IMG/VR virus record: IMGVR_UViG_3300032007_000015
Length of the DNA stretch: 64,000 bases
Origin: a virus
Lineage: Duplodnaviria; Caudoviricetes
Strand: one strand, 5' to 3'
The position numbers and the translations under genes were made by a program. Of the stretch, positions 1,626-50,048 are shown piece by piece. Each line of letters starts with the position of its first letter. Position 1 is the first letter of the stretch. Below the pieces are notes generated by a model. That model saw only the letters and a program-made list of their open reading frames with translations. It was not told the origin of the DNA and made no database searches.

Positions 1626-1638
1626 TTATACCATTGTT
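1626..1638 (-). promoter_or_regulatory. Late promoter motif AACA-N6-TAA
   Basis: AACAATGGTATAA upstream of the 1576/1307 genes. Confidence 0.6.
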
Positions 1639-1710
1639 TTTTATATCTGAATTTTTTAATTATAATATTTTATTTTACGTTATATTAATTATATTATATT
1701 TAAAGGAGAA

Positions 1711-2196
1711 ATGATGCATATGTATACGAAAAAATTATTAAATGAAAAATCTATAGATAAAATGTCAAAACCATATATAATATATGGTATAACATATAGT
1801 GGTGATGTAATTGTAATAGGATATGTTGATAATGTAATAATGGCAAAAGAAGTTGAAAAAATGGTTATTAATAAAATAAATAAAGCTACGATATGTAACT
1901 CAATATGTCCAATGAATGGTCTATCTCTAGTTTCTAATGGTGAAACTAAAAAAGAATTGAAAAAGAAATTACAAACTTTAATGAAGAACGCATACCATAA
2001 TATTAATACAAATAAATCAGAAATAAAATGCGATAAATGTAAATTTAAAAATATTAAAATTAAAGAAACTGAAAATGGATATAAATCATATTGTAAAGCA
2101 GCTACAATAAATGATTTATATTATGATATACATACAATAAAATATGAACCAATTAACAAGGTTTCATCTGATCTTATTCAAGATTTAAAAAGATAA
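1711..2196 (+). CDS. Hypothetical protein with Cys clusters
   Basis: 161-aa ORF, SD AAGGAG, CxxxC and CxxC motifs. Confidence 0.65.
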   Translation: MMHMYTKKLLNEKSIDKMSKPYIIYGITYSGDVIVIGYVDNVIMAKEVEKMVINKINKATICNSICPMNGLSLVSNGETKKELKKKLQTLMKNAYHNINTNKSEIKCDKCKFKNIKIKETENGYKSYCKAATINDLYYDIHTIKYEPINKVSSDLIQDLKR

Positions 2197-2232
2197 AAAA
2201 GTAGTACAGTGAATATTCACTGTACTACTTTT
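2197..2232. terminator. Perfect 36-bp palindrome, probable bidirectional terminator
   Basis: AAAAGTAGTACAGTGAAT|ATTCACTGTACTACTTTT between convergent genes. Confidence 0.75.
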
Positions 2233-2260
2233 ATTATTCATAATAAATCCAAACTCTTTT

Positions 2261-3175
2261 TTATAAATCTCTACCTTTTGTAGTATAAGATGGAGTTGTT
2301 TTATTATATGTGTCATAGTCATATGACTTATCAGCATTACGGTAGTTGATAACACTCTGGTTTTCAATTTTACCTGTTTTCTGATTATATCCTGTTGGTG
2401 TTAATACACCATCAGCTGTACTTACTACATCATCGAGACCAGAGTTAAACTCAAGTGAGTTAACGAGAATCTGATAATTCTGAAGTAATATAGCAGCTTT
2501 AGCATTGATTTCAGCTGATTCATATTTTGTTCCATAGAATTCAACTGTTGTATCAACATACTCGTGGCTGCCTGCATCATAGTTGAACTGGTCGTTTTTA
2601 TATCCCTTAGGGAAGCAGTTACAGAATTGGCAAGCATATTCAACTTTCATACCTGTTCTATCAGTTACAACATATATAAACTCTGCTGTATGGTTAGCCT
2701 GTTTATATGCTAATTTACCATCTTGAATAAGTCCGCCATAATGAGCGAAACCTGATTGTAAATCTGATATACCATTAACCCAGAAGTGAAGTACTTCACG
2801 AATTGGTGAACCAGAGAATTCAAATGTTTTAATTGAAAATCCATTTGTACTATCTGTTGCAAGTGTTGGAATATCGAATTCACGTCCAACATATCCACCT
2901 TTAATCTGTGTACTACTAAGGTCAACATCGTTAATACCTGAAATACCAGTATTACCATACTCTAGGATATGTTTAAATTTATTAAATTCATCACTGAGAA
3001 TCTTATTAAATAAGTTTGGCTTACGAACCATAAATAAACGTCCGTAACCAGTAATCAGTGGGTCATACTGATTTAATGCATCACGAGTAACATTTAATCC
3101 ACCGAGCATTAAACTATATTTTGTAATGTCGGCGTTGTCCGCTTTATGTGCATTTGTCTGAATTGTAACAGCCAT
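2261..3175 (-). CDS. Tail tube protein
   Basis: 304 aa, directly downstream of sheath; tube-like pattern (FSIKTFEFSG, NCFP, FNY...VDTTVEF). Confidence 0.75.
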   Translation of the reverse strand: MAVTIQTNAHKADNADITKYSLMLGGLNVTRDALNQYDPLITGYGRLFMVRKPNLFNKILSDEFNKFKHILEYGNTGISGINDVDLSSTQIKGGYVGREFDIPTLATDSTNGFSIKTFEFSGSPIREVLHFWVNGISDLQSGFAHYGGLIQDGKLAYKQANHTAEFIYVVTDRTGMKVEYACQFCNCFPKGYKNDQFNYDAGSHEYVDTTVEFYGTKYESAEINAKAAILLQNYQILVNSLEFNSGLDDVVSTADGVLTPTGYNQKTGKIENQSVINYRNADKSYDYDTYNKTTPSYTTKGRDL

Positions 3176-3194
3176 AATTTACACACTCCTTTCT

Positions 3195-5279
3195 TTATTC
3201 TGTAGCATTTTCAGTTTCCTCATCATACTGACGTCTATTAACATCAATTTCAAGGATTGTCTGTTTTGCTAATGGTCTAAATGTAACTGCAAGATATGCA
3301 TGTACAATAGATCTGTTATATTCAAATTCGTTAACTTTATACTGAATATCTAATGACTCAAGTTCTTTACCAACCATACTACGATATTTCTGCTTAATAT
3401 ACTGAGCAAAATCTGTTCTGGTTGTTGCTGAAGTAAATTTATAATGCTGGTCTCTAGCATCTTCTTCAACATGTCTCTTTAACCACATAAGAACACTTAC
3501 ATTATTTTCTTCAAGTAAATCAGAATCTTCCTCTTGGAAAGTATTCTGTGTTGCACGAACAAATGTATCTTCATCAACACATTCAAAATAGTTAAATCTG
3601 CTTAAATATAATCTATCCATTAAATCTTTTTCATATAATTCAACAGATGGTTTAAGTGAATTTCTAATATGTCCTGATAATGTGCAATATTCATTAACCA
3701 TTGGAATATGTCTACCATTATTAATAACATGTGATGGATGACGTAAAGCAAGATAATATGTTGTTGTTACAGCTACACGTTTTCCTGTAGATGATTCTTT
3801 AATCTTATAATCCTGTAAGTTCATAGAGATTAATTTAGAAGCAAATACTTTGTACTGCTCATCCATACTATTAATAGTATCATCAAATATACCTTCCATT
3901 GAATTTACATCAGACTCTGTTAATGTATCCATAATACCTGCATCCATATAACAAATAGCGTCTTTTCTGAATAATGCTAATTTAACAAGACATTTCTTTA
4001 CAGAAATATCATAGTTAGCATCAAATAATGCTTCAGCCTGAATACGTCTAGGAGCCATAATTAATTTATCATATTCTCCACTAAATGCTTTGATATATGC
4101 TTCATTAATAGCCTGAGTTCTAGCTTCAGAATCATTAGAAGCATCAAATGCACCATCTGTACCACCATTTAATGCATTACCTGTAACATCATCAACATAA
4201 ATGAATTTCTCATCTGTGATGTTAGCTTCTTTCTTTGGATCAGGAACAGATGTATATTTAGTTGCATCGAAATCTTCTGCTTCCTGATTAATTTCATCTG
4301 TTAACTGTTCAACAAATGTAATATATGGCTGATTAGCAGCAACTTTAACTTTGTTTCTAGCTATATCTTTACCGAATAATGGGTCAAATTCATCTAAAGA
4401 TGGAATTACAACTGATTCAAGAGGATTATCATCTTTAACTTCTTTACAGAATTTAACATATTCGTCATACATTGCTTCAATATTTTCTTCAAATACATGA
4501 ATATATACTGGAGCCAATCCAATAGTTACATCTTCAAGAACATCATTGATTAATGTAGCTTCTGTTGTTTTTGATGATGTTGTTAATCCACCAACATATC
4601 TTGCAATTGTTTCAGAACCATTTTCAGTATCAATAATTTCAAAAGAATATAATTTAACACCATACTTCTTTTCGTATTCTGTGTTTAATGCAATTCTCCA
4701 TCTTATATTATTACCATACTTACCTCTACCATCTGAATTAACAACCATAAATGGAACCTGAGTATATCCTTCAGTATCTTTATAAACACCACCAACATCA
4801 GCACCATCTAATTTTAATCCACCCTTTCTGATAGATTCAATATTAGTAAGGTCGACATCTCCACCATTTGCAAGTGCTTTTGATGTCATTTTAATATTAA
4901 ATTTCTTATTTTCTTTATCTGCCTTATACCAGAGTGAAACAACTGCATGAGAGTATGTTGCATCTTCAGGCATAACACGCATACACCAAACGTTTGTGTT
5001 TGGATTTGATAAAAGAGCTTCTGCCATCATAAATGGCTGACCATAAAGTTTATAATTAGAATAACCATAAGCTGAATGGAATGAACTTAAAGCACTTTTA
5101 CGTATTAATTTATTATCTACACCCTTACTTGATGTAAAAACAGCGATATAATTAAGATTCTCAATTGTTGAATTAGAAATAGCATCATCATCAAGTGTAT
5201 TTCTAACAGTATTATCATTGAGAACAGTCTTTACGTAAGGATATGAGTAATCTGGTACGATTTGTACTGTATTAGGCAT
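3195..5279 (-). CDS. Contractile tail sheath protein
   Basis: 694 aa; sheath-like N-terminus (YGQP, VWCMRV), GxYGN, NGGTDG, C-terminal beta-strand signature LAVTFRPLAKQTILEIDV. Confidence 0.85.
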   Translation of the reverse strand: MPNTVQIVPDYSYPYVKTVLNDNTVRNTLDDDAISNSTIENLNYIAVFTSSKGVDNKLIRKSALSSFHSAYGYSNYKLYGQPFMMAEALLSNPNTNVWCMRVMPEDATYSHAVVSLWYKADKENKKFNIKMTSKALANGGDVDLTNIESIRKGGLKLDGADVGGVYKDTEGYTQVPFMVVNSDGRGKYGNNIRWRIALNTEYEKKYGVKLYSFEIIDTENGSETIARYVGGLTTSSKTTEATLINDVLEDVTIGLAPVYIHVFEENIEAMYDEYVKFCKEVKDDNPLESVVIPSLDEFDPLFGKDIARNKVKVAANQPYITFVEQLTDEINQEAEDFDATKYTSVPDPKKEANITDEKFIYVDDVTGNALNGGTDGAFDASNDSEARTQAINEAYIKAFSGEYDKLIMAPRRIQAEALFDANYDISVKKCLVKLALFRKDAICYMDAGIMDTLTESDVNSMEGIFDDTINSMDEQYKVFASKLISMNLQDYKIKESSTGKRVAVTTTYYLALRHPSHVINNGRHIPMVNEYCTLSGHIRNSLKPSVELYEKDLMDRLYLSRFNYFECVDEDTFVRATQNTFQEEDSDLLEENNVSVLMWLKRHVEEDARDQHYKFTSATTRTDFAQYIKQKYRSMVGKELESLDIQYKVNEFEYNRSIVHAYLAVTFRPLAKQTILEIDVNRRQYDEETENATE

Positions 5280-5375: not shown

Positions 5376-5388
5376 TTAATTATTTGTT
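5376..5388 (-). promoter_or_regulatory. Late promoter motif AACA-N6-TAA (sheath-tube operon)
   Basis: AACAAATAATTAA. Confidence 0.65.
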
Positions 5389-5464: not shown

Positions 5465-5477
5465 AACAAATATTTAA
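5465..5477 (+). promoter_or_regulatory. Late promoter motif AACA-N6-TAA
   Basis: AACAAATATTTAA about 30 nt before ATG 5507. Confidence 0.6.
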
Positions 5478-5506: not shown

Positions 5507-6157
5507 ATGAATAATCAGATAATATCATACCTGAATCATTTTCAATTAGGTACCGCACTAGTTATTATTACTGGATTTATTAGTGGAATATTTGCTTTTT
5601 ATAAAAAAGCAAAAAAATATAAAACTATGTATGATAATGAAATGAGAGGTAAAATAATTAAAGAAGAACACGAAGAAAATGACGAAGAAAACTATAAGAA
5701 AAAAGTTGATGACGTATGTTCAAATATAGAAATCATAACAAAATCTATAGAACAAATGAGTGATGACATTAAACAGTTTGAATCTAATGTCAAAAATGAA
5801 CTTAAAGAGAATGCTAGTTTAAATAAGAAAAATATTGATTCACTTAGTTTAGAAATAGAAAAGCATACTGTTGCATTAAACAAGGTAGAATTGTCATTAG
5901 ACTCTACAAATAAAAATGTGTCATTATTAATAGAATCTGATAAAGAAGATATTAAAGCATATATAACCGATGAATATAACAAATGGAGTGAAAAAGAATA
6001 TATAGACTTGATATCACTCCAATCTATAGAAGCACGATATGCTAAATATGTTGAAGAGAAGGGAAATGGTTTTGTTAAAAAACTAATGACTGAAATTCGA
6101 AATCTTCCAACAGAACCACCAAATAAACATAAAAATGATAATAAAGAAGATAGTTGA
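5507..6157 (+). CDS. Membrane-anchored coiled-coil protein, possibly holin-associated
   Basis: N-terminal TM helix, coiled coil, C-terminal YxxYxxxxGNG...IxxLP motif of the kind seen in Firmicute phage lysis-region proteins. Confidence 0.5.
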   Translation: MNNQIISYLNHFQLGTALVIITGFISGIFAFYKKAKKYKTMYDNEMRGKIIKEEHEENDEENYKKKVDDVCSNIEIITKSIEQMSDDIKQFESNVKNELKENASLNKKNIDSLSLEIEKHTVALNKVELSLDSTNKNVSLLIESDKEDIKAYITDEYNKWSEKEYIDLISLQSIEARYAKYVEEKGNGFVKKLMTEIRNLPTEPPNKHKNDNKEDS

Positions 6158-7183: not shown

Positions 7184-7196
7184 AACAAGTTTTTAA
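7184..7196 (+). promoter_or_regulatory. Late promoter motif AACA-N6-TAA
   Basis: AACAAGTTTTTAA. Confidence 0.6.
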
Positions 7197-7233: not shown

Positions 7234-8478
7234 GTGTTTTTTAATGAAAACTTTAATGAAAGTTCATCATTTATGTTTGATGAATTATTTATGGAAGCTA
7301 ATGGTGAATTACATATAATGAAAGATTATCTTGCCCCAATAGTTGATGGAACTCTTGCAGATCCACAAAAAGATAGAACTTTTAAAAAAGAAATAGGTAA
7401 TTATATAAATAGAAATATAACAAAATTAACAGAAGCTGGACCAATGGATTTAATTCCATTTGGTGATGATGATAAACGAATATTTTTCAGTATATTTAAT
7501 TTAGATTCAAACGATGTCATAAGTAAAACAAAAGAAATGACAAAAGTATTAAATTCAAATGCTAAAGATTTTAAATATCTTCATGGTAATCCTGTTTTGT
7601 TTTTATTTTATTTTTGTATACGATATTATTATATGAAGCGTGATGTTAAAGGACTCAATTCAGCATTATCTATTTATGCATTAGCTGTATATCCATCTGT
7701 ATTTAATATGAGTTTTAAATATGGTGTTAAACGTCCAGTTATGCAATATACAATGGATAATTTGACTGATAAATTCTTAATGAAGAAAAAAGGAAATCTT
7801 TTTGCTACATTAGTTGAAAGTATTCAAAGAAGTTTTAAGTTCTTACAATCTGAATTTAATGAAGCATATGATACTGAAATTGTACGTTTTATTCAGCGTA
7901 TTCATAATGACCAAAAATCAATGATAAAAAAAATAGCTACTGAATATTATAAAAATAATGCTAAAGGATTAGCTGTTTCAATAACAAATGATACTTATGA
8001 TGATGATACACCTATTTTAGATGATGTTACAAATGCAACATCACAAGTTGAAAATATATCAAGACGAATATTATTACCAATATTAACAAATGGTGTTGAT
8101 ATTAAACGTGCTGAAGCAGCTGCTAAAATATGTGGAATTGGTGTTAGTGATTGTAGATATTATTTGACGTTAATACTTGTTGATAAAAATAGCGATAGTT
8201 TACAAAAGTTTTTAGAAGCAGTATTATTTTTATATCTTTATGATGAACATAAGTCTCCACAAAATATAAATAGTTCATATTTTTTAACATGGGGTATGGC
8301 TATGTTTAAAAAGACTAATTCTAATAATAAAAATATAAAATTAATAAAATCAACTCTTGATAAATGGGCTGAAGCATCTGGTATACATAATAAATATACA
8401 AGAGAAGCTTCAAGAGTAAATTATAAAAAAGCTATATTTTTATATATACTTCTTTCAATTCAAAAATATAATAATTAA
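7234..8478 (+). CDS. Probable virion protein with acidic propeptide, function unknown
   Basis: 414 aa, GTG start with GGTGA SD; N-terminus carries FNES and FMEA sites; late promoter motif upstream. Confidence 0.6.
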   Translation: MFFNENFNESSSFMFDELFMEANGELHIMKDYLAPIVDGTLADPQKDRTFKKEIGNYINRNITKLTEAGPMDLIPFGDDDKRIFFSIFNLDSNDVISKTKEMTKVLNSNAKDFKYLHGNPVLFLFYFCIRYYYMKRDVKGLNSALSIYALAVYPSVFNMSFKYGVKRPVMQYTMDNLTDKFLMKKKGNLFATLVESIQRSFKFLQSEFNEAYDTEIVRFIQRIHNDQKSMIKKIATEYYKNNAKGLAVSITNDTYDDDTPILDDVTNATSQVENISRRILLPILTNGVDIKRAEAAAKICGIGVSDCRYYLTLILVDKNSDSLQKFLEAVLFLYLYDEHKSPQNINSSYFLTWGMAMFKKTNSNNKNIKLIKSTLDKWAEASGIHNKYTREASRVNYKKAIFLYILLSIQKYNN

Positions 8479-8547: not shown

Positions 8548-8560
8548 AACAAATAATTAA
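8548..8560 (+). promoter_or_regulatory. Late promoter motif AACA-N6-TAA
   Basis: AACAAATAATTAA. Confidence 0.6.
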
Positions 8561-8588: not shown

Positions 8589-9887
8589 ATGTATAATATT
8601 ATGTATGAAAATATGATGGATATTCAGGATGATGCAATTACTGGATACTTGGGTACACTTAATGATTGTGTACTATGTATGGAATCTTGTATTGAATCTG
8701 ATGATGATGATATGTTATATGAAATTACCGAATCAGTAGCAGATGTTCTTAGTAACATATACAATGCAATTGTACAAATTTTTACAACTATTAGAGATGG
8801 ATTTTTATCATTTTTTAAGAAAAATGAAAAAAAAGAAAAAGAACTCGCAGAACAGATCCAAAAAAATCCTCAAGCTGCTAAACAAAAAATAAAAGTTGTT
8901 GATCAGAAGAAGCTTGAGGATGCCTATAATGAAGGTAAAAAGAAACTTGAGAATGGTGAAGACTATGAAACAGTTCATAAAGAATATAAGAAAAAGAGCA
9001 CAAAACTTATTAAAGGTGTTGCAATTACAGGAGCTGTTATAACAGTCGGTGCTGGATTTTATGCATATGGAAAACATAAAAATACACAAATTAAAAAAGC
9101 TGAAAATGACGTATTTGTTTATAAAAAAATTGCTGCTTCTAGAAGAAAAGCTCTTGACGCTGAGATGCGTAAAAATAGAGAATTAGAAGATAATAATAAA
9201 GCATTATATGATTATGGTAAGATGGCTCAACAAGAAATAACTTCACTTAGAAAAGATTTAAATGTAGCAGAAAATTTATCTAGTAAATTACAAGGTGATG
9301 TTGATAAGTTATCTGAAAAAATTCAGAGTTTAACTAAAACCGGTTTAAATAAAGATAAACAAATTAATTCTTTACAGGTAGAATTAAATAAAAAAGTTGA
9401 TCAACTTCAAAAAGCTAGAAGAACTGAGGGTGAATTTAGAAAGAAGTATTCAATTGCTTCAAAAAAATATAATACTGTAATGAATTCTGCTAAACACGAT
9501 GCCGAATTTGGTACACATGGTGTTGCTAATAGACTTGCTCATGATGCTAACGTTGCTGCTAAAAATGCAAAGAATCATGAAAATCAATTAGCTGCAAATA
9601 AGGCTAAAAAAGATAAAATGAACGCATCATCTGTTATTGGACAATATCAGAAAGATGCTGAGATTCAGCAGAAGATTGCAAGATTAAATAGAGAATTTGC
9701 TATTGATATGCAGTCTGCTAATAGTCTTATGCTTAGTGAAATGGCTAATGCAATGAATAAAGCTAAAAATAATGAACCTGCATTAAATATTAATATGGGT
9801 AACATAAAAGTTGGTGCTATGAATAAAGCATTAGATCAAAAGACACAAACGCCGAATATGCGTGGTAGACTAAAAGAAATTGTATAA
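8589..9887 (+). CDS. Putative internal head protein (paralog family)
   Basis: Acidic propeptide (CMES, CIES, ITES), amphipathic helix, Gly/Ala hydrophobic segment GVAITGAVITVGAG, long coiled coil. Confidence 0.6.
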   Translation: MYNIMYENMMDIQDDAITGYLGTLNDCVLCMESCIESDDDDMLYEITESVADVLSNIYNAIVQIFTTIRDGFLSFFKKNEKKEKELAEQIQKNPQAAKQKIKVVDQKKLEDAYNEGKKKLENGEDYETVHKEYKKKSTKLIKGVAITGAVITVGAGFYAYGKHKNTQIKKAENDVFVYKKIAASRRKALDAEMRKNRELEDNNKALYDYGKMAQQEITSLRKDLNVAENLSSKLQGDVDKLSEKIQSLTKTGLNKDKQINSLQVELNKKVDQLQKARRTEGEFRKKYSIASKKYNTVMNSAKHDAEFGTHGVANRLAHDANVAAKNAKNHENQLAANKAKKDKMNASSVIGQYQKDAEIQQKIARLNREFAIDMQSANSLMLSEMANAMNKAKNNEPALNINMGNIKVGAMNKALDQKTQTPNMRGRLKEIV

Positions 9888-12283: not shown

Positions 12284-12491
12284 ATATATTATCCACCTTT
12301 CTTTTATATTTTTAATTATTAGAAAAATGTTTTTTAAGCATATTTTTAGAACTGAGATATGTTTATATATTATATATATGGAGTTCATATGTAAGTTATA
12401 ATTTTGAATATATAATATAACAAATTTATAATTCGCGAATATTATAACAAAAGGACCTAGAAAACAAAACACAGAAAGGAGATAGAAAAAT

Positions 12492-13370
12492 ATGAAAGAC
12501 CAAAAGTCGATCGAAATATCTATCAATGAGAAAGTGGTTGATCACGAAAAGGTAAGAAAGGAGAGATTAAAGAATTTAAGTATATTTATAATTCTTTTCG
12601 TGACTATGGTTTGGTGTCATAATATTTCATTTGGAAAAACAACAAATGAGGCACAAACTAAAGAAACTAAAGAGACAACTAGTTTATCGTTAGATAAACC
12701 AGAAGTTAGTAGTGAATTAGTTAAGGCTATTATCACTCCTGTCGAGAAACAACAATTAAGAGCTGAATTATTTGATACAACGAATAATTCAGAAGAAACA
12801 ACGGAAGGAGAAGAAAAAGAAACTTCAACTGTAGAGGAAATAATGATCGAAGAATCTACATCAGAAGAAACAACAATTGAAACAACAGAATTAACAACTG
12901 AGGAAACAACCACTGAAGAAAATACAACCGAAGTTGAGACAACTGTTGAAGAAACTATTAATAATACAGATTACAGATACATAATCCAATCTGAAGAAGA
13001 ATGGAGAGTGTTTACAAAATGTGTAGAAGCAGAAGTAACAGGTGATGATCCTGAAGGAGTCAATTATGATACTGCTGTTAAGTGTAAATTACACGTTGCA
13101 CAAGTAATTTTAAATAGGGTTGAACATAAAGACTTCCCTAACAATATAGTTGATGTTGTATATCAACCGCACCAGTTTAGTCCAGTATCAGATGGACGAA
13201 TTTCGAAAGTCGAGGTTAGCCAATCAACAATTGACGCTTGTAATCTCGCATTAATGTCAAGTACAGAAGATACCGTGTATGGTTCATTATATTTTAGATT
13301 TGGTGGTGACTGGTCATATTTAAATAAAATATTTACTGATGAAGTTGGACACCAATTTTATACACGATAA
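12492..13370 (+). CDS. Membrane-anchored SleB/CwlJ-family (Hydrolase_2) cell wall lytic transglycosylase
   Basis: N-terminal TM, Glu/Thr-rich linker, VEAE catalytic motif, VAQVILNRV, FPNNIVDVVYQxxQFSPV, GHQFY. Confidence 0.85.
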   Translation: MKDQKSIEISINEKVVDHEKVRKERLKNLSIFIILFVTMVWCHNISFGKTTNEAQTKETKETTSLSLDKPEVSSELVKAIITPVEKQQLRAELFDTTNNSEETTEGEEKETSTVEEIMIEESTSEETTIETTELTTEETTTEENTTEVETTVEETINNTDYRYIIQSEEEWRVFTKCVEAEVTGDDPEGVNYDTAVKCKLHVAQVILNRVEHKDFPNNIVDVVYQPHQFSPVSDGRISKVEVSQSTIDACNLALMSSTEDTVYGSLYFRFGGDWSYLNKIFTDEVGHQFYTR

Positions 13371-14367: not shown

Positions 14368-14464
14368 TACTAGAATGAACAAATAAATATGAACTCGTGA
14401 GAATAATTTCTCACGAGTTTTTTTATTCGTAAAACTGTGTATTAAAATAAAAATATAAAAGAGG

Positions 14465-15568
14465 ATGGTAATTATTATGATGGAATTAGTTAATCCATTT
14501 GGAGTTTATTTTAATATGATAAAAATGAAATATGTTGATTATGATAGCCTCATATCAACATTAAATTTTTTATCACCATCTGATAAAGTTTCTTGTTTTA
14601 TAAATTTAGAAACTGTTTGGAAATATCTTACAACGACTAAAGATTTAGAAAAAAAATTAATATCGTATCCAAATTTCAAAACGACAATGGTTGCAGATAT
14701 TATAAATATTGCAGCTCATTATAGAGAATTTTTTAGAAATAATGGTTTAGATACAAAGATATATTTGTATGCAACAAGTTTTAATTCAACAATTGGTAGT
14801 TATAATGAAAGTAAATATAATGAAGACTATAGATCTTATTATTATACTAAATATAATACTAATCCTAATATAGTTCTTTTAACAGAATCATTACAAGAAG
14901 AAATATTAAAGAATGTAAAAACAATATTAGATTTTGTTCCAGGTGTATATATGATAAATTCTGAGAATATAGATTCAAATTTGGTACCGTATATTGTATC
15001 TAATATAGAGCCTGAAAGAAAAAATTTAATTATAAGCGGTGATATTTTAGATACACAGTATTATTATGTAAAGAATTTTTTAGCAACGTATATTAATAGA
15101 GGTATAAATACTGGATTAACCGTTTCATACAATCCAGAATCATATATTGCAATACTTAATAAAACTCGTGTATTAACACCACAACCAGAAATAAATAATA
15201 ATAGTTCTTTTTATTCGTTAATTCTTTCTTGTATAGGAGAAAAATATAGAAGCATACTATCTATTAGAGGTATTGGCGTTAAAACTATAATATCTATGAT
15301 AAAAGATGGAATTAATAATAATACTATAACAGCAAATACAAAATCAATAGAAATTCTTAAAAATATTTTTAAAGAAGACATACAAGAAGATATAATTAAT
15401 AATTTTAAGTCAATTGATTTATTTAGTAGAATAGATGAATTAAATGATTCTCAAATTTTAAGTATAAAAAATCAATTAATTGATAGAGTTGATATAAATT
15501 CATTGATGAAGATAAATAAAGAATTATTTAGTGAATCACCTTTACGAATTGAGAGTTTATTAAATTAG
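14465..15568 (+). CDS. Divergent 5'-3' exonuclease / T4 RNase H (FEN)-like protein
   Basis: LIISGDILD and H3TH-like SIRGIGVKT motifs. Confidence 0.55.
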   Translation: MVIIMMELVNPFGVYFNMIKMKYVDYDSLISTLNFLSPSDKVSCFINLETVWKYLTTTKDLEKKLISYPNFKTTMVADIINIAAHYREFFRNNGLDTKIYLYATSFNSTIGSYNESKYNEDYRSYYYTKYNTNPNIVLLTESLQEEILKNVKTILDFVPGVYMINSENIDSNLVPYIVSNIEPERKNLIISGDILDTQYYYVKNFLATYINRGINTGLTVSYNPESYIAILNKTRVLTPQPEINNNSSFYSLILSCIGEKYRSILSIRGIGVKTIISMIKDGINNNTITANTKSIEILKNIFKEDIQEDIINNFKSIDLFSRIDELNDSQILSIKNQLIDRVDINSLMKINKELFSESPLRIESLLN

Positions 15569-18776: not shown

Positions 18777-18777
18777 T

Positions 18778-35763: not shown

Positions 35764-37527
35764 ATGGTATATAATATGATATCGTTTTTAACAGAATCTG
35801 GCACAGATTTTAAGGAAACAACTACTGTTGGTGGATTTACCAACGGAATGAATAAAAACAACTTTGATGCTGCATTCGAATCAGCTTGTGACAGTCTTAA
35901 CCAGTCTGGTCAGGGCTATGATTTTATGAATGATATTAATGCATTACTTAAAAATGATGCAGCTATGGAATCATTTAAAGATTCTATTCTTTCAGATCTT
36001 CAGAGTTATTGTGAAGGAAGAACAATTGAAGATTCAGGTAATTTTGCTACATTATATGAACAGGCTTCTCAGTTATTTGATAACGTAAAGAATGACCTTG
36101 TTACAGAGTCAACAAGAGTTGGCGTTTTATTACCTATTAAGGCTATTGATTTACCATTAGTAGTTAAGAGTCAGCTTAAAGTTGTTTCAAAAGATATTGT
36201 ACAGACAGAGGTTACTCAGTCACCAATTATCAAGAAACAGATTGAACAGACATATATTGTTGATCCAAAGTCAAAGAAGAGATGGAAATATCCACAGGCA
36301 TTCTTCAATGATGAGTATAAGGAAATCTTTAAAGCTGGTAAAGGTTTACCAATTAAGGATACAAAAGTTACATTACCACAGTTTGGTTATGATATTATTG
36401 ATAATCTTACAGATGCTACAGTTGCATCTAGAGAAGACTTTACAATTGATCTTAGAATTGTAAAAGTATTTATTGATAAAGACGTTGAAGTACCTCTTAA
36501 AACACCTATTAGGGTTAACCTTGCAGATGGTTCTTTAGTTGGTGGTGTTATTAATACAACAGTAGAAGTTGATGATGAAGGTGGCTCAAGCGGAAAGAAA
36601 CAGCAGGAAGTTAAGGATGTTATTTCAGGAAATGTAGATTTTATTTCTAAGACTGTTTCTATTAGTTCAGCTTCAGGTCAGATTAAGAAAGTTGTATTTG
36701 CAGGAAATCTCAGCAATGAGAAGAATGAAAGAGCCGTAACATTTGATTACGCTAGAGAAGACTTCGAATGGAAAGTAGAAGATGGCTTCAGAGCTAATGT
36801 TCCTTTCACACTTGAAGAGCTTGAAGATGCTAAAGCATTACTTGATATGGATCTTTATAAGAAGACATATAACAACATCGGTGAATTATTAATTCAGATG
36901 GAAGATTCTCAGGTACTTGATTGGTTAGATGAAGAGTTCGTTAAGTATGATGGTATTGAACTTGATCCACTTGACTTCAACCCATTCATCGCTAAGAAGA
37001 CATTTGATTGCGATTCATCAACAGTTACAGTTGCATTACCATATGAATACATCCAGAAGCAGCTTAAATTCACAATTGATAGATTTATTACAGCTATGGC
37101 TGATAGAGCTAAACTTGAGGATTTAACATTCGTTGTATATGGTAATCCAAAATACATTGCTTTACTTGATCCAGAAGTTAACTGGGTTGTAAAGAATGGT
37201 GATATGGTTGGTGGTGTTAAATTAAACTACAGCTATGGTATTATGACATCAGGTGATGTTAAAGTACAGGTTGTTTCTGCTTACAAAGTAAACAGCAAGA
37301 AGCTTAGATTTATCCCATTCCCAACAAATGATACTACATTAACATTCAAGCATTATAAATATTCAACACATATCCTAACAAGTGCAAATAGTGCTTATCG
37401 TTCACCAGATCTCCCAGGTGGTTCAATGACATACATCATGGGAACATCAAGATATAAGAACGTTTCACTTCAGGGTATTCAGGGTGAGCTTAGCTTCACA
37501 AATGCTGAATTTGTAGATCTTGATTAA
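35764..37527 (+). CDS. Major capsid protein precursor
   Basis: 587 aa, biased codon usage, propeptide ending LVTE|STRVGVLLP, HK97-like features (TLEELEDAKALLDMD, VVYGNP). Confidence 0.8.
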   Translation: MVYNMISFLTESGTDFKETTTVGGFTNGMNKNNFDAAFESACDSLNQSGQGYDFMNDINALLKNDAAMESFKDSILSDLQSYCEGRTIEDSGNFATLYEQASQLFDNVKNDLVTESTRVGVLLPIKAIDLPLVVKSQLKVVSKDIVQTEVTQSPIIKKQIEQTYIVDPKSKKRWKYPQAFFNDEYKEIFKAGKGLPIKDTKVTLPQFGYDIIDNLTDATVASREDFTIDLRIVKVFIDKDVEVPLKTPIRVNLADGSLVGGVINTTVEVDDEGGSSGKKQQEVKDVISGNVDFISKTVSISSASGQIKKVVFAGNLSNEKNERAVTFDYAREDFEWKVEDGFRANVPFTLEELEDAKALLDMDLYKKTYNNIGELLIQMEDSQVLDWLDEEFVKYDGIELDPLDFNPFIAKKTFDCDSSTVTVALPYEYIQKQLKFTIDRFITAMADRAKLEDLTFVVYGNPKYIALLDPEVNWVVKNGDMVGGVKLNYSYGIMTSGDVKVQVVSAYKVNSKKLRFIPFPTNDTTLTFKHYKYSTHILTSANSAYRSPDLPGGSMTYIMGTSRYKNVSLQGIQGELSFTNAEFVDLD

Positions 37528-37623: not shown

Positions 37624-37636
37624 AACAGTTAAATAA
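37624..37636 (+). promoter_or_regulatory. Late promoter motif AACA-N6-TAA
   Basis: AACAGTTAAATAA. Confidence 0.6.
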
Positions 37637-37661: not shown

Positions 37662-38906
37662 ATGGCTATTGTAATAACTTCAGAATATAAAAATAAACTT
37701 GAAGAGTTATTTGGATATATTCTTGAAAGTAAAGATTTTAGTAAAGTTGATGAAATATCATCAATATTATCTGAATGCTTTGATACTAATATAAAAACAG
37801 TCATAATTGAAAATAATACAAAAGATTCTTTCTTTGTAATGTCTATTGTACCAGATGAATTTGTTGTTGACAAAATAGCAACATTAATTATGAATGGTTC
37901 TAATAAAGATGATTTTGTTAGTGAATTATGGAAAAATTGCGATAATTGGACATTAGAGATTGATTCTAATATATTTGACGATAAAATAGTTAATTTGACT
38001 GCAGAAGAATTAACTGCTTTAGTTTTACATGAAATCGGACATGTTGTTAATACAAATGCTATACCAACAAAAATAAATAAAGTTCTAAAATATAAAATTG
38101 CAACATCACCTATAACTACTAAGGCAATAATGAGTAATAATAAATTTATTAAATTTTTATACTTACCAATTATAAGTGGATGTACATTTAATAAAAATAG
38201 AGCTTCATTAAAAAATGAACTTAGAGCTGATAATTTTGTTGTAAAGATGGGATATGGAAATCAATTAATTTCTGTTGTTGATAAGATATCTAAAATAAAT
38301 AATTATGAAGATAATTCTATAACTAATGAAATTTCTGATTCATATGATTTTTCTACAAATACAATATCAGATTTGCAAACCAGAAGAACACAACTTAATA
38401 GAATGAAATTTAAAAGATTAATAAATAGATTACCTAATGGTACAAAACTTAAATATAATTTAAATGCATTAGAAAGTTCTTTGTATGATGTTGCTGCAGA
38501 TTCAATGCTATCAGTGAATAAAAAAATAAATATGACTTGTGAATCTGTAAATAAAGCAATAGAAGATTATGTTTGTGAAGCATTTGGATTCAGAAATAAG
38601 AAACTAAAAGAAATTACTCGTACAGAATTAGATTATATTGATGTACAAATTTTAGATATGAAGAATAATGATGATAGAATGCTAATATTATCATATATTA
38701 ATAGTAAGCTTGATTTATGTGATTATTATATTACAATTTTAAAAGATAAGAAATTATCTAAAAAATATCAAGTACCTCAATCATTATCTTCTTTATTATC
38801 AATAAGAAAACGTCTTTTAGATAGTAAAAAGAGAGCATTTCAACAAAAGATTCCTGAGAGAATCGAAGATATACACGTATTTTATCCTGTAAATTATCAG
38901 GGTTAA
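37662..38906 (+). CDS. Zincin metalloprotease-like protein (M48/gluzincin type)
   Basis: EELTALVLHEIGH plus downstream ELRADNF...GYG. Confidence 0.75.
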   Translation: MAIVITSEYKNKLEELFGYILESKDFSKVDEISSILSECFDTNIKTVIIENNTKDSFFVMSIVPDEFVVDKIATLIMNGSNKDDFVSELWKNCDNWTLEIDSNIFDDKIVNLTAEELTALVLHEIGHVVNTNAIPTKINKVLKYKIATSPITTKAIMSNNKFIKFLYLPIISGCTFNKNRASLKNELRADNFVVKMGYGNQLISVVDKISKINNYEDNSITNEISDSYDFSTNTISDLQTRRTQLNRMKFKRLINRLPNGTKLKYNLNALESSLYDVAADSMLSVNKKINMTCESVNKAIEDYVCEAFGFRNKKLKEITRTELDYIDVQILDMKNNDDRMLILSYINSKLDLCDYYITILKDKKLSKKYQVPQSLSSLLSIRKRLLDSKKRAFQQKIPERIEDIHVFYPVNYQG

Positions 38907-40514: not shown

Positions 40515-41312
40515 TTATAGCATTACAATTTTATTCGGTTTGCCATTATTATCAATATCTTGTTTCTTTGCTTCTTCTAAATATTTAAAGAATAAATAAT
40601 GATTTTTATTAGTAATTTTCAAGTAATTAAATGTATTTGAATTAGATTTCATTACATCATCTTTTAACTTTTCTTTCATTTTATCAACTGCTTGAATTTT
40701 TGGATGATTATTCGGATTATCTCCACCATCTTTAATCTCTATTTCTAAATTAAGTGATGGAATATATACATCAGGAAAATAAAAATGTTTTTTATTTTCA
40801 TATATATAATAATACGTATGGGGTGATGGAGTAAATATATCTTCAGGATCCATATCCATTACATTATCAAGAAATTCTAAAAAACTTTTTTCGTATGAGC
40901 CAGTATAGCTAAATTCATGAACTCTATCACTCCATAAGTATGTGCCACTTATTTTTCTTTTAGCTAACATAATTCTTTGTTGTTCTGGATCATTAAGTAA
41001 TGTCGTTTGCCCATATTTTCCAACCATTCTTTTCTTAAAAGTTTCAGCATATTTTTTTTTACATTCGGGTGAACCGCAAAATCTATTATATTTATTTGTA
41101 GATGTATTCCAAGTTGTTGGTTTACCACATATAACACAATTACCGTGTTTTTTACCTGTATTTAAATAAAATATAAATTGTCGTGCAGTCATATTTGGAA
41201 TCATCATATCTTTATGTTTGCTTTCCATATGAGAAGCATAATCATCTATATCATAATAAAATTTATCACAATATTTACAATTAATTCTTCGTTTTCCCAT
41301 TTTATTTGTCAC
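40515..41312 (-). CDS. Zn-finger PD-(D/E)xK nuclease (TnsA-like / T4 gp4 head-completion-like)
   Basis: C2H2 finger, CxxC...C....C, GSYEKSF, YFPDVY...IEIKD; next to baseplate genes. Confidence 0.65.
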   Translation of the reverse strand: MTNKMGKRRINCKYCDKFYYDIDDYASHMESKHKDMMIPNMTARQFIFYLNTGKKHGNCVICGKPTTWNTSTNKYNRFCGSPECKKKYAETFKKRMVGKYGQTTLLNDPEQQRIMLAKRKISGTYLWSDRVHEFSYTGSYEKSFLEFLDNVMDMDPEDIFTPSPHTYYYIYENKKHFYFPDVYIPSLNLEIEIKDGGDNPNNHPKIQAVDKMKEKLKDDVMKSNSNTFNYLKITNKNHYLFFKYLEEAKKQDIDNNGKPNKIVML

Positions 41313-41331: not shown

Positions 41332-41344
41332 TTATTTTATTGTT
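41332..41344 (-). promoter_or_regulatory. Late promoter motif AACA-N6-TAA
   Basis: AACAATAAAATAA. Confidence 0.55.
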
Positions 41345-45181: not shown

Positions 45182-45194
45182 AACAATACCTTAA
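45182..45194 (+). promoter_or_regulatory. Late promoter motif AACA-N6-TAA (RNAP beta')
   Basis: AACAATACCTTAA. Confidence 0.6.
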
Positions 45195-45215
45195 ATGCTA
45201 AAGGAAGGTGATAAA

Positions 45216-48200
45216 ATGAAAATAGAAATTTTTGATACTAAGCTCTTTATAGATTTAAATAATCTAAAAGAGGTATCATCTCCCGTACTTTTTCAACGAG
45301 GAGATGTACCTGATCCTAAAGGTTTAATATCAAATGATATATTTGGTGTAAGTGTTCGTTCAAGAAAAGAAACATTTGCATATATAAAATTAAATGGTCA
45401 TTTTTTTAATCCTCACGTATATAAAGCTTTTAAACGTTTATGGAGAAATGTTGAAAGAGTTATAAATGGTGCAGAATATTATATAATAAATCAAGATGGT
45501 ACTCTTATTAAAGATGATAATGGAGAAACTGGAATAAATTTCCTATATAAGAATTGGGAACGTATAAATTGGGAACGTTCATTAGATCCTGCAAGTATAA
45601 GAAATGAACGTATTGATTTATTAACAAAATCAAAAAAGAATGAAGTTTTTACTGAATATCAAATAGTTATTCCTGCTTTTTATCGTGATATTATGCAGAA
45701 TCAAAAAGGTGGCGGAGAAACTGATAAGTTAAATCCAATGTATTCAAATCTGATTCGTATGGCAAAAATGTTAAAAGAAAGTGATATGTTTGATTTTAGT
45801 ATGTATTCAACTGTCTATAATATGCAAAATATTATGGTTGATATATATGATTATTTTAAAGATAAGTTAGATGGTAAAAATGGATTAATAAGAAAATTCT
45901 TATTAGGTAAAAATGTTGATTATTGTACTAGAACTGTTATTACTTCTCCAATATTTCATTCTAATAGACCTAGCGATATGAATGTATCTATGAGGTATGC
46001 TGGTGTACCTCTACCACAAGCTTTATCATTATGCTATCCATATGTTGTACAATGGCTTAGAACATTTTTTGATAATAATTTTAATGATTATAAAACAGGT
46101 ATTCCTGTTTATGATAGACAAACAAAACGTATAGTTGATAGTATACCGATAAAAAATCCAGAATCATATTTTAATGAAAAATTTATCAAAAATATGGTTG
46201 ATAGATATATTGATGATCCTGAATATAGATTTGAACCAATTAAATTACCAACAGAAAGTGATAAGCAATATTATTTAACATTCACTGGTAAATATTTAAC
46301 TCCCGGTGTTCCTGCTGAACATTCAAGCATTTCAAATAGATATTTAACAGTAACAGATTTACTTTATATTTGTGCTTCTGATATTGTAAAGGATAAACAC
46401 GTATTGGTTACACGTTATCCTGTAACTGATTTATATGGTGTATTTATTGCTAGAATACATTTAATTTCGACATTAAAAACTGACGTTGTAAAAATTAATG
46501 AAACTTTATATAAAGAATATCCTCATGTTGAAATTGGATGTGAGCCTGAAAAAATTGCAACTAGATTTATTGATAGTATGCAATTTTCAAATGCTTATCT
46601 TGAAGGACTTGTTGGTGATTATGATGGTGACCAAATAACATCTAAGATAATTTGGTCACAAGAAGCAAATAATGAATGTGAAAAAGTTATGAATAATGTA
46701 TCGTATTTTATAACTCCTCAAGGTAAAAATATAAGAGTAATTGGTGCTGAAGCAATTCAGACGTTCTATACAATGACAAAAGATCCACTACAAAATTCAA
46801 AAACATTATTACGAGCAGATGTAGAGAAGTTTTTAAATATGAAACCCGAAGATTTAACATTTGATAAACTTGTTGATATCTTTGGCGATAAAACAAATGA
46901 TAAGGTTAATGTTATAAAATCTAAATATTCACCAACTGATAAGATGATTTTAGAATCTAAAGATTATATCAATAAATCAAGAATTGAAACAACTTTAGGT
47001 AGATTTATATTTACTAAAATACTTATAGAAGGATGTGACTTATCTGATATAATTGGATATGTTAATGAAAACTTAACAGAAGATAAATTTAAAGCTATTG
47101 AGTCAAAGATATCTACCGCTTGCAGAGAAGGTAAATATTCTGTTGATAATATGTATAAATATATTGATACTAGAGACTGGTTAGGTTTACAATTACATTC
47201 AGTAATTACAACATCATTTACCGAAAAAGTAACAAAAATTCATCCTGAAGTAAAAAAATTAAAAGATGAATTATTTAAAAAATATCATACTGAACTTGAA
47301 AATGGAGATTATAAAGTTGCAGAAATGATAGAAAACGAATTAGTTGCTAAAACTAAAGAATTACTAAAAGACGATCCTGGATTGGATTTATATATTTCAG
47401 GTGCAAGAGGTTCCGTCGGTAATAATATGAAAAATATGTTATTAATGAGAGGAGCCGTTCTTAATTCAGTAACCGGAAAATATGAAATTGTTAAATCTGC
47501 ATTAAATGATGGTATGGAAAAAAGTGAAATACCAATGTCGTCTGATACAATTGTTCAAGGTGCATATTCTAAAGCTTGTGGAACCGCTGATAGTGGATAT
47601 TTAGCAAAGCAATTACTTGCTGGTATGCAGACAGAAGTTGTTGATGAAGAGGGTTCTGATTGCGGAACTAATAAAACACTTCATATTCATTTAACGAAAA
47701 AATTGATATCTCATTTTACTTATCGAAATATCAAAGAAGGAAATAATATTAAATTATTAACACCAGAAAATATAAATGAATATGTTGGAAAAGATATTGA
47801 TGTATATTCTCCAATGTATTGCTGTGGTGATAAATTATGTAGAAAGTGTGTTGGAAAATATCCAAATAAGTTTATCGGTCTTGATGCTTCTAAGATTGCA
47901 ACAACACTTACTAACTTAAATATGAAAAAATTCCATGATAACGTAATTAGAACTACATCATTTGATCCAAAACGTTTATTAATGATTAATAAAAAAGATA
48001 TATTTAAATCAGAAAAAAATGATATAATTCTCACAGATAAATATTGTGAGTTTTATATACCTAAAAATTATTTTGATGATTCAAATAAGTTTTCTGAAGA
48101 TTATGGTAAAACCATTCATACTATAGGTATTTTTAATGTCGGTATTTTTAATGATGGAAAACTTTCATATATTGATACGTTGGAACTTCCTTCATGGATT

Positions 48201-48722
48201 GATATATATAGATATGAATCCGAAGAACGAAACATTAATTTACCTGGTTCTCCTAATACACCTTGTTATGTATATAAATACTTTAATGGTAATCCTGTGT
48301 TTGCTAATTCACTAATTATAGATATTTTAAATGCAGAAATTTTCTTAAGATTAGTTACAAAAGGTAAACTACCTACATCTATACCTTATTCTAAATCTAT
48401 AGAAATGTGGTTAAAGAATATGGAAATAGCAGAAGTAAACTTTGGTGTTCCTTCAGTCGTACATGAAATGATTTTGGGAATTTCATATAGAGATAAAAAT
48501 GATGTTACACGTAAATTTGCTAAAGTAATAGGTATGCCAGGTTCAAAAGTATCTGAATATGATTATGTAATGGCTAGCATCCGACAGATTTGTCAGTTTA
48601 CAAATACATTTACTGCAGTAACATTTGAAGATATTGATACTATGATTACAGCAAGTATTAATAGAGAAAGAGAAAATAAACCAGAAACAAAATCTCCTGT
48701 TGAAGAGTTATTTAGAATGTAA
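45216..48722 (+). CDS. rpoC: Phage multisubunit RNA polymerase beta' subunit (probable virion RNAP)
   Basis: GLISNDIFG, LLGKNVDYCTRTVI, TRYP, catalytic GDYDGD, SGARG, bridge helix TADSGYL, Zn site DCGT..CCGDKLCRKC, trigger loop TNLNMKKFH; start probably ATG 45216 (SD AAGGTGA). Confidence 0.92.
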   Translation: MKIEIFDTKLFIDLNNLKEVSSPVLFQRGDVPDPKGLISNDIFGVSVRSRKETFAYIKLNGHFFNPHVYKAFKRLWRNVERVINGAEYYIINQDGTLIKDDNGETGINFLYKNWERINWERSLDPASIRNERIDLLTKSKKNEVFTEYQIVIPAFYRDIMQNQKGGGETDKLNPMYSNLIRMAKMLKESDMFDFSMYSTVYNMQNIMVDIYDYFKDKLDGKNGLIRKFLLGKNVDYCTRTVITSPIFHSNRPSDMNVSMRYAGVPLPQALSLCYPYVVQWLRTFFDNNFNDYKTGIPVYDRQTKRIVDSIPIKNPESYFNEKFIKNMVDRYIDDPEYRFEPIKLPTESDKQYYLTFTGKYLTPGVPAEHSSISNRYLTVTDLLYICASDIVKDKHVLVTRYPVTDLYGVFIARIHLISTLKTDVVKINETLYKEYPHVEIGCEPEKIATRFIDSMQFSNAYLEGLVGDYDGDQITSKIIWSQEANNECEKVMNNVSYFITPQGKNIRVIGAEAIQTFYTMTKDPLQNSKTLLRADVEKFLNMKPEDLTFDKLVDIFGDKTNDKVNVIKSKYSPTDKMILESKDYINKSRIETTLGRFIFTKILIEGCDLSDIIGYVNENLTEDKFKAIESKISTACREGKYSVDNMYKYIDTRDWLGLQLHSVITTSFTEKVTKIHPEVKKLKDELFKKYHTELENGDYKVAEMIENELVAKTKELLKDDPGLDLYISGARGSVGNNMKNMLLMRGAVLNSVTGKYEIVKSALNDGMEKSEIPMSSDTIVQGAYSKACGTADSGYLAKQLLAGMQTEVVDEEGSDCGTNKTLHIHLTKKLISHFTYRNIKEGNNIKLLTPENINEYVGKDIDVYSPMYCCGDKLCRKCVGKYPNKFIGLDASKIATTLTNLNMKKFHDNVIRTTSFDPKRLLMINKKDIFKSEKNDIILTDKYCEFYIPKNYFDDSNKFSEDYGKTIHTIGIFNVGIFNDGKLSYIDTLELPSWIDIYRYESEERNINLPGSPNTPCYVYKYFNGNPVFANSLIIDILNAEIFLRLVTKGKLPTSIPYSKSIEMWLKNMEIAEVNFGVPSVVHEMILGISYRDKNDVTRKFAKVIGMPGSKVSEYDYVMASIRQICQFTNTFTAVTFEDIDTMITASINRERENKPETKSPVEELFRM

Positions 48723-48742
48723 TAGAAAGGAAGTATTAAAGA

Positions 48743-49489
48743 ATGAAATTTTTTAATGAAAATACTGTAAATGATTTATTCTTCATTACAGAAAATAAAT
48801 TTATTTCTTCACTATATACAAATAATGCAGTCTTTACTGAAACTTCTATTTACGATATTGGTAAAGCAATTAGTGAATATATACAGAAAGTAATAAATGA
48901 TTTAAAAGCATTTACTAAGCATATAAAAAGTGATATCATTTCACTTGCACGTAGAAGAGAAACATTTACTAAATTAAAACAATTAAAAAAAGAATTACAA
49001 GAGCAAAAAGACTTAGGAAAAACACAAGTATTAATATTTGATTATGAAAAATATGCTAAAGAATATAACAAAATGGTTATGAGTAGTGTAAAAGAATTAT
49101 CGTCATTATTAAGAAAAAGATACACTTCTAAAGGTGATATTGAAAATGAAATGTATAAATTTGAACGTAAAATGGAAGAACGTGAAAATGATTTAGATAT
49201 TATTCTTAATACAAAAGTAACAAAGAATATTAACGATGCAATCACATATGTAGAAGAAAATCTTAACGGAACCATATCTATTGAAAAAACATTACTTGAT
49301 GCAATACATGAAATGGATAGATTAAAAATCGAATCAGAAAGGATTTTTAAGAACATAAGATTAAGTGAAGAAAATGAAATACGTTCTACATACACTGGAT
49401 GTATAAGAAGATCTGTTACTCGTTTAAGCAGGTCTTTTACAAGATCGTTTAAAAAGTTTGTAGTGCGTTCAATTTGTTTATTCGCTTAA
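48743..49489 (+). CDS. Putative internal head protein (paralog family)
   Basis: FNEN/ITEN/FTET propeptide followed by amphipathic helix. Confidence 0.5.
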   Translation: MKFFNENTVNDLFFITENKFISSLYTNNAVFTETSIYDIGKAISEYIQKVINDLKAFTKHIKSDIISLARRRETFTKLKQLKKELQEQKDLGKTQVLIFDYEKYAKEYNKMVMSSVKELSSLLRKRYTSKGDIENEMYKFERKMEERENDLDIILNTKVTKNINDAITYVEENLNGTISIEKTLLDAIHEMDRLKIESERIFKNIRLSEENEIRSTYTGCIRRSVTRLSRSFTRSFKKFVVRSICLFA

Positions 49490-49584
49490 AAATCTTTTTT
49501 CTTTTTCCTTTTTATATATATATTATGGATATGATAGTATTCGTTAAAGAAGAGAACTAGGTTAATCCCTAGTTCTCTTCTTTA

Positions 49585-49920
49585 CTACTCTGTAGTATCT
49601 TTTGCAGTCTCTTCTGTTGAATTTGTAGTCTCTTCTGATGGAGCAATATATCTATCAGATGATAAATCAAGTTCTTTCACGATATATATTCTACGATTAT
49701 TATCTGGATCCAAATAATCTTTATGAAGTGCATAAACTTTTCCTTTTAATACTATAGAAGTTGTTCCTTTATCAAATCCAGTTGCAAAGTCTGTTGTAAA
49801 TGTATAGTCTAATTCAATCCATCTGTCTTGATTTTCCATTGCAAACTTATAACCTAAATTCATACCGTTTTGAGCTTCAGCTCTAGATACTGGAACCATA
49901 ATATGTTTTACATCTGCCAT
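49585..49920 (-). CDS. Hypothetical late protein
   Basis: 111 aa, SD AAGGAG, AACA-N6-TAA at 49957-49969. Confidence 0.7.
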   Translation of the reverse strand: MADVKHIMVPVSRAEAQNGMNLGYKFAMENQDRWIELDYTFTTDFATGFDKGTTSIVLKGKVYALHKDYLDPDNNRRIYIVKELDLSSDRYIAPSEETTNSTEETAKDTTE

Positions 49921-50048
49921 ACTTTTAGTTCTCCTTTCGTATTTATTTTATTCGATTTAACTATTTGTTTTTAAGTAAATTAAATAAAAAAGAACGAATA
50001 TAGAAATTTTATATTCGTTCTTTTTAATTAAGTTATGAAAGAATCAGA

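Follow-up and report, generated by a model that had tools for sequence, protein, structure and literature searches.

The motif AACA-N6-TAA precedes structural, lysis and virion RNA polymerase genes in a 64,000-nucleotide (nt) stretch of phage DNA (the window), which comprises bases 58916-122915 of the 158,316-bp IMG/VR virus record IMGVR_UViG_3300032007_000015 (the contig). We read these sites as late promoters of a jumbo phage related to Bacillus phage AR9, used by an AR9-type transcription system on DNA that most likely contains thymine, and we give this reading a probability of about 0.7. The same estimate covers, jointly, the placement of this uncultured phage, with a genome of about 240 kb, as a deeply branching sister lineage to the group of AR9/PBS1, S6 and phiR1-37. 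The late promoters of AR9 and PBS1 are read by a non-virion RNA polymerase (nvRNAP) holoenzyme consisting of gp270, gp154, gp105 and gp089 together with gp226 (PMC5312081, PMC5449584, PMC9209446, PMC7598289). Their consensus is A(-11)ACA-N6-U-A/G(+1), with a requirement for deoxyuridine (dU) (PMC7598289, PMC9209446). An earlier note on this DNA had proposed an AR9-like transcription programme and possibly a dU-containing genome; our analysis upheld the former and pointed away from the latter. The evidence that we observed consists of the motif, its placement and strand bias, its conservation in the clade, homologs of AR9 proteins, and the classes of genes with and without the motif.

Exact AACA-N6-TAA occurs 21 times in the window. 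Fifteen of these matches are the sites listed in the earlier note, all of which were found at the coordinates and strands given there, as were three AACT-N6-TAA variants (14433(+), 17497(+) and 51903(-)); five of the six further matches are intragenic (5139, 12319, 49352, 54538 and 62445). Over the whole window the motif was rarer than in dinucleotide shuffles (21 observed vs 37.8 ± 5.5), indicating that there was no global enrichment, and the signal was therefore tested by position and strand. On the sense strand of the upstream gaps (4,406 nt), AACA-N6-TAA was present 14 times as compared with 1.29 ± 1.12 (maximum 6) in 2,000 dinucleotide shuffles, and AACA-N6-TA was present 15 times in these gaps as compared with 2.87 in shuffles. 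In 16 of the 21 exact matches the predicted transcription start (+1) lay 10-110 nt ahead of a start codon on the same strand; this zone takes up 4.6% of positions, so that 0.96 such matches would be expected (binomial P = 6e-18). Over the whole contig, 32 of 46 matches were placed in this way. The distance from the predicted +1 to the start codon had a median of 33 nt (interquartile range, 29-38.5). Comparison with shuffled DNA, which the earlier note had suggested as a check, thus gave a clear positional signal and none across the window. These figures also bear on whether the motif works in the RNA, by directing the processing or stability of leaders, or arises only from the AT-richness of intergenic DNA. 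Its constant distance from start codons and its shortfall against shuffles across the window would fit such an origin, but shuffled gaps yield about one-tenth of the observed count, and the co-directional gaps of the whole contig hold 17 sense copies vs 1 antisense copy. Moreover, the same motif is enriched in a relative with 41% GC, and several copies directly follow terminator-like hairpins, as expected of transcription starts. We regard this origin as extremely unlikely.

An unbiased scan, in which all 4-N(3-9)-3 dyads in upstream regions were counted without preselection of the motif, returned AAAC-N7-TAA (31 of 102 regions, 4.7 expected) and AACA-N6-TAA (26 of 102) as the top dyads other than ribosome-binding sites (RBS). 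Beyond the selected positions, A was conserved at -13, -12 and +2. When the AR9 genome (KU878088) was counted as a positive control, the top dyads were AACA-N5-TTA, AACA-N4-ATT and AACA-N6-TAT, which correspond to the experimentally defined late promoter of AR9 (PMC7598289). The window phage therefore resembles AR9 in the AACA core, in the 6-nt spacer to TA and in the placement about 30 nt before the start codons of late genes (median 33 nt vs 31.5 nt in AR9), whereas it differs in the additional A residues, since positions -13, -12 and +2 were not conserved in the AR9 count.

The result was replicated in G001, a complete relative of 254,709 bp with 41% GC, in which 55 of 95 AACA-N6-TA copies fell within the intergenic 10% of the genome and AACA-N6-TAA was the top non-RBS dyad. 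The G001 consensus was ccT.aA-AACA-N6-TAAg, with CCT at -17 to -15 and G at +3. Further relatives, of about 250-280 kb and taken from virome and metagenome records, were also examined. In related genomes (55-62% protein identity), 12 of the 15 capsid loci had an exact AACA-N6-TAA within 130 nt upstream of the gene, with diverged flanks. We also considered that the motif might serve the host RNA polymerase, equipped with a sigma factor of host or phage origin, instead of a phage nvRNAP. The sites are AT-rich and stand at promoter distance, and the link between motif and nvRNAP in the window phage is indirect. However, the motif is unlike the sigma70 -35 and -10 elements, its core and spacing equal those of the AR9 nvRNAP promoter, and the phage encodes the cognate specificity subunit. 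The N6 spacer carried no information in G001, and a sigma70-type -10 box was ruled out on that ground. Recognition by the host enzyme is thus highly improbable.

The genes behind the motif were those expected of a late class, as the earlier note had stated. Genes were assigned to early or late timing by function. The motif precedes the genes for tail sheath and tube, capsid, a fibre-like protein, tape measure, portal, virion-protein homologs, two lysis enzymes and a virion RNA polymerase (vRNAP) subunit; it is absent before those for the nvRNAP beta'N subunit, gp226, the DNA polymerases and thymidylate synthase (ThyA), and before a small-gene operon (51973-58572). Early-type units are marked by a different repeated AT-rich cassette, TATATATATTgaTATAATATT..., which resembles the AR9 early consensus AAATATATATTAT. 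Motif placement, gene classes and early cassette together support an AR9-like programme with two polymerases.

Homologs of both AR9 polymerases were found. The gene at 45195-48722(+), which follows a late motif (45182-45194(+)), encodes a protein of 1175 aa that looks like a fused vRNAP subunit: it contains two RNA polymerase modules (phrog_2986, residues 8-526; phrog_2962, residues 546-928) and a module annotated as virion structural protein (phrog_2926, residues 934-1174), and it matched AR9 gp264 at 1.7e-71. The nvRNAP beta'N subunit, a homolog of AR9 gp270, is encoded at 60272-61579(-), with no late motif upstream. A homolog of the specificity subunit gp226 lies outside the window, at contig positions 147455-149044, in a gp226-gp227-GroEL block that is syntenic with AR9. 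It matched AR9 gp226 at 5.6e-17 by phmmer and at 3e-25 by BLASTP over its full length, with only 25% identity. Its AlphaFold model (mean pLDDT, 77.9) had AR9 gp226 in the holoenzyme as its best PDB match (7S01_A, E = 1.6e-15), followed by a weak structural match to the phiKZ gp68 chain (9rjs_B, E = 0.07). The model predicts the same fold as AR9 gp226, with a short helix (residues 234-241) between helices 2.1 and 2.2, in the position that 2.1bis occupies in AR9. At the position of Y246 the gp226 homologs have an invariant Phe, so that an aromatic residue is retained. Scanning viral contigs with the single protein gave no match; the family was found with a profile. At E <= 0.001 it comprised 515 protein clusters, and the contigs that carry them reached 287 kb. 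Among cultured phages, only the PBS1/AR9 group matched the gp226 homolog. The consensus, leader length, late-gene placement, gp226 homolog and, within the window, the beta'N gene all agree with the AR9-like programme claimed in the earlier note.

The contig is 66% complete (CheckV) and has about 26% GC. Thirty-three of its open reading frames (ORFs) matched AR9 with 23-47% identity, including those for capsid, sheath, portal, tape measure, several virion proteins and both DNA polymerase parts. By capsid protein, the nearest cultured relatives were the Staphylococcus S6/MarsHill, Bacillus AR9/PBS1, Yersinia phiR1-37 and Listeria LPJP1 phages (22-24% identity), and the S6/MarsHill, phiR1-37 and LPJP1 phages belong to the same genome size class. 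On the Clostridia host guessed in the earlier note, the analysis covered the lysis enzymes in the window, which are of Firmicute type (Amidase_2 and SleB-like Hydrolase_2).

Nucleotide-metabolism genes bear on the base composition of the DNA. The earlier note had looked to an absence of ThyA and dUTPase as a sign of a dU genome. The contig, however, encodes a ThyA that scored 262 bits with PF00303 and 155.9 bits with TIGR03284, against an equivalog cut-off of 108.35. Its best PDB match was B. subtilis ThyA (1B02; 1e-61), the catalytic Cys and the uracil-specifying Asn are retained, and it shares 40% identity with ThyP3, the thymidylate synthase of phi3T, and also matches phrog_160. A deoxynucleoside monophosphate (dNMP) kinase gene adjoins it. 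Among 15 relatives that are at least 96% complete, ThyA was present in nine and ThyX in three others (12 of 15 with ThyA/ThyX), and a dUTPase-family gene was present in 13. In contrast, neither ThyA nor dUTPase was found in any of five cultured relatives (0/5: AR9, S6, MarsHill, LPJP1 and phiR1-37), and dCMP deaminase showed the reverse distribution, being present in AR9, S6 and phiR1-37 and in 1 of 10 searched genomes of the new clade. From ThyA and this reciprocal pattern relative to dU phages, we conclude that the phage probably has thymine DNA. The gene content argues that it would make dTMP and incorporate it into its DNA, with a thymine derivative made from dUMP as the less likely outcome.

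A dU-for-thymine genome, whose promoters would be read by an AR9-like system as UUGU on the template strand, was weighed against the same genes. The consensus and spacing match those of AR9, a gp226 homolog is present, and by capsid protein the nearest cultured relatives are without exception phages with known or presumed dU DNA. The 66% of the genome that is available yielded no dUTPase. The search for Ugi and dCTP deaminase that the earlier note had proposed gave a divided answer: a dCTP deaminase is encoded (TIGR02274, 93.6 bits against a cut-off of 92.8; PF22769, 109 bits) and could supply a dUTP pool, but no homolog of AR9 Ugi was found in the contig or G001, a weak negative since Ugi-like proteins are small and fast-evolving and the contig is incomplete. 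An AR9 dCMP deaminase homolog was likewise not found in the contig or G001. Together with ThyA, the dCTP deaminase fits the ordinary route dCTP -> dUTP -> dUMP -> dTMP. Against a dU genome stand the ThyA above its equivalog cut-off beside a dNMP kinase, and the predominance of ThyA/ThyX and dUTPase-family genes in a clade whose five cultured dU relatives, known or presumed, lack ThyA and dUTPase. As a weaker point, the clade assembles routinely from standard metagenome libraries, and dU in DNA reportedly interferes with library PCR (bioRxiv 10.1101/2020.12.14.422802). We consider a dU genome very unlikely.

The residues that contact the base in AR9 were also compared. AR9 gp226 V206 is reported to clash with the methyl group of thymine and to be absolutely conserved in dU phages (PMC9209446). 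In the gp226 homolog of the window phage this position is Thr, as bulky as Val, which would suit a dU genome; over 120 homologs, however, the column varies (P44, I29, T21, L16, V5, G2) between invariant neighbours, which speaks against one. We tried the V206-equivalent residue as a discriminator between uracil and thymine and rejected it, because the variable column does not track the presence of ThyA and dUTPase and is therefore not diagnostic in this clade. AR9 gp105 residues R363 and K375 aligned with Ser and Asn in G001, in a pairwise alignment of a poorly conserved stretch; this apparent loss speaks against a dU genome and is suggestive only.

Several points weigh against late promoters of an AR9-type system on thymine DNA. 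Both the promoter function and the start site are inferred from sequence. The AR9-type nvRNAP core is a four-gene split beta/beta' set, all four genes of which are present in the complete G001, whereas the 66%-complete contig has only beta'N; homologs of gp105, gp089 and gp154 were found only in relatives. Thr is isosteric with Val, and Val itself occupies the V206 position in relatives with ThyA and dUTPase, so the pocket does not appear to be obviously opened. On our reading, the recognition pocket differs in its build from that of AR9, and sequence alone cannot tell uracil from thymine specificity. Finally, an enzyme of the ThyA family might conceivably act as a dUMP hydroxymethylase and lead to 5-hydroxymethyluracil (hmU) DNA, and the adjacent dNMP kinase would fit this equally well.

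The last point amounts to a separate explanation, in which the same promoters would act on DNA containing hmU or hypermodified thymine, with the ThyA-like enzyme serving as dUMP hydroxymethylase and the neighbouring kinase phosphorylating its product. A combination of ThyA-family enzyme, dNMP kinase, dCTP deaminase and dUTPase is also typical of hmU phages of the SPO1 type. The direct adjoining of the ThyA-family and dNMP kinase genes, the dCTP deaminase here and the dUTPase-family genes in relatives are consistent with it, but the best matches of the enzyme are bona fide thymidylate synthases (B. subtilis ThyA, phi3T ThyP3 and phrog_160), and no SPO1-type phage was among the best 40 ThyA matches listed. 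In addition, three relatives have ThyX instead, and we know of no ThyX that acts as a hydroxymethylase. Modified thymine is accordingly rated unlikely, and ordinary thymine remains our preferred reading.

Another base chemistry may occur within the same clade. The candidate is the lineage of G020 (282 kb, complete) and G017, which lacks ThyA, ThyX, dUTPase and dCMP deaminase, yet has exactly the same core of the gp226 2.1bis stretch, NSTIFEQREIFGVD, as the window phage.

By homology with AR9, the following programme may be proposed. A multisubunit vRNAP packaged in the virion would transcribe early genes from AT-rich early promoters, and the early products would include nvRNAP subunits, such as beta'N (60272-61579), and the gp226-type sigma-like subunit. 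The nvRNAP holoenzyme would then recognise two elements, AAAACA (about -13 to -8) and TAA (-1 to +2), and transcription would start at the A of TA, so that transcripts of structural, lysis and vRNAP genes would have leaders of about 33 nt. The vRNAP subunit encoded at 45195-48722 would thus be made late and packaged for early transcription. Since thymine DNA is most likely, promoter recognition here could not depend on deoxyuridine at -11 and -10. It is speculative whether the extra bases (A at -13, -12 and +2, and in G001 also CCT at -17 to -15 and G at +3) replace the specificity that uracil provides. The promoters in the window would most likely be AR9-type late promoters with an extended consensus.

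This programme can be set beside those of known phages. Relative to AR9, it shares the promoter core, a gp226-type subunit of the same predicted fold, a homologous vRNAP subunit, a homologous nvRNAP beta'N subunit (with the full split nvRNAP core seen in G001), and early genes without the motif; it differs in low gp226 identity, in the V206 and gp105 residues noted above, and in having ThyA and dCTP deaminase with no Ugi or dCMP deaminase found, whereas the AR9 enzyme ignores thymine promoters. phiKZ is comparable in having a five-subunit nvRNAP with a sigma-like fifth subunit, gp68, and thymine DNA, but its TATG late promoter is unrelated, and no chimallin homolog was found here in a low-power search with the single sequence of phiKZ gp054. 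A precedent for the behaviour proposed is an engineered one: the AR9 holoenzyme with gp226 V206G accepts thymine at -10 (PMC9209446). This AR9-type enzyme tolerates thymine, as we propose for the natural enzyme of the clade, but where the mutant has a small residue, members of the clade have T, P, I, L or V, and any thymine tolerance must therefore come from a differently built pocket.

Extending the argument to the whole clade, we lean, with confidence only a little above even, towards the view that a large group of uncultured jumbo phages (more than 500 gp226-homolog clusters) runs an AR9-type gp226/nvRNAP system with AACA-N6-TA promoters on thymine DNA. To our knowledge, the AR9 nvRNAP is the only RNA polymerase that reads a promoter on the template strand and requires uracil there. 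The requirement has been explained as a way of ignoring host DNA (PMC7598289, PMC13282480), and in the papers searched gp226-type recognition is tied to uracil genomes and late promoters are called unpredictable from sequence (PMC7598289, PMC9209446, PMC13282480, bioRxiv 10.1101/2020.12.14.422802). Our literature search found no report of an AACA-N6-TA promoter in thymine-DNA phages. The widespread clade described here has the same promoter and specificity subunit together with genes for thymidylate synthase and dUTPase. If the view is correct, promoters could be read on the template strand without any link to uracil; AR9 would have acquired its dU dependence as a specialisation, or the new clade would have lost it; and phage promoters would be told apart from host DNA by the longer consensus AAAACA...TAA, in place of uracil. 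It becomes testable whether uracil reading is intrinsic to the enzyme family, how the 5-methyl group is accommodated and how the host genome is avoided. Unlike the literature view for AR9-like and MarsHill-like phages, the late promoters of this clade would be predictable directly from their sequence, which would help to annotate operon structure and the timing of genes across hundreds of genomes of uncultured jumbo phages.

The individual predicted late promoters are as follows. On the left of the window, the site at 1626-1638(-) stands before ORFs 1313-1576(-) and 3-1307(-), with the predicted +1 51 nt before the ATG, and that at 5376-5388(-) stands before the tail sheath (3195-5279(-)) and tail tube (2261-3175(-)) genes, with the +1 98 nt before the ATG. 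On the plus strand, 5465-5477 precedes ORF 5507-6157, with the +1 31 nt before the ATG; 7184-7196 precedes 7234-8478, a homolog of AR9 gp052; and 8548-8560 precedes 8589-9887. A probable late promoter that was absent from the earlier list, 12419-12431(+), lies 62 nt before the gene for the SleB-like cell-wall hydrolase (12492-13370(+)). Two AACT variants follow: 14433-14445(+), before the AR9 gp220 homolog at 14465-15568(+), and 17497-17509(+), directly after a terminator-like hairpin (17460-17485) and before a homolog of AR9 gp218. The true start of the latter gene is ATG 17533 and not TTG 17493 as given by the ORF finder.

Further along, the site at 22674-22686(-) precedes 21582-22637(-) and 18815-21559(-), and that at 28615-28627(-) precedes 27827-28600(-) and the genes downstream of it. 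Two divergent sites, 32879-32891(-) and 32928-32940(+), stand before the tail-fibre-like gene of 1276 aa (29013-32843(-)) and before 32976-34820(+), respectively; the fibre-like protein had no match among cultured phages by tblastn. The gene for the major capsid protein (35764-37527(+)) is preceded by a tandem pair, of which the downstream copy is at 35732-35744(+) and the upstream copy, at 35661-35673(+), lies about 100 nt before the gene, within the last codons of ORF 34827-35690. Two or three tandem motifs occur at the same place in G017 and G020. Besides the site before the vRNAP subunit gene (45182-45194(+)), the remaining predicted promoters are 37624-37636(+), before 37662-38906(+); 41332-41344(-), before an endonuclease gene (40515-41312(-)); and 49957-49969(-), before 49585-49920(-). 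The third AACT variant, 51903-51915(-), precedes the amidase/endolysin gene (50707-51888(-)).

Some minor observations were made along the contig. A GIY-YIG homing endonuclease gene (59234-60139(-)) lies directly downstream of beta'N and is followed by a gene-free gap of 661 nt (58573-59233). We considered that the beta'N gene might be split and sought a second exon in this gap; none was found, and as the G001 homolog is of similar length (473 aa), a split gene need not be invoked. A cassette of early type, TATATATATTgaTATAATATTtttgtgaataaaataaaa, whose first part resembles the AR9 early promoter AAATATATATTAT, occurs before small genes at contig positions 5593, 11454, 25712, 28220, 109529 (about 50614 in the window), 126731, 143200 and 158278. 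The endonuclease at 40515-41312(-), located behind a late promoter, is the protein best conserved with AR9 (gp233, 47% identity), and its N-terminus has a weak PvuRts1I-like match under the Pfam cut-off. Within the small-gene operon that carries no late motif, 56620-57330(-) is a transposase-like gene (phrog_10081, E = 1.4e-56).

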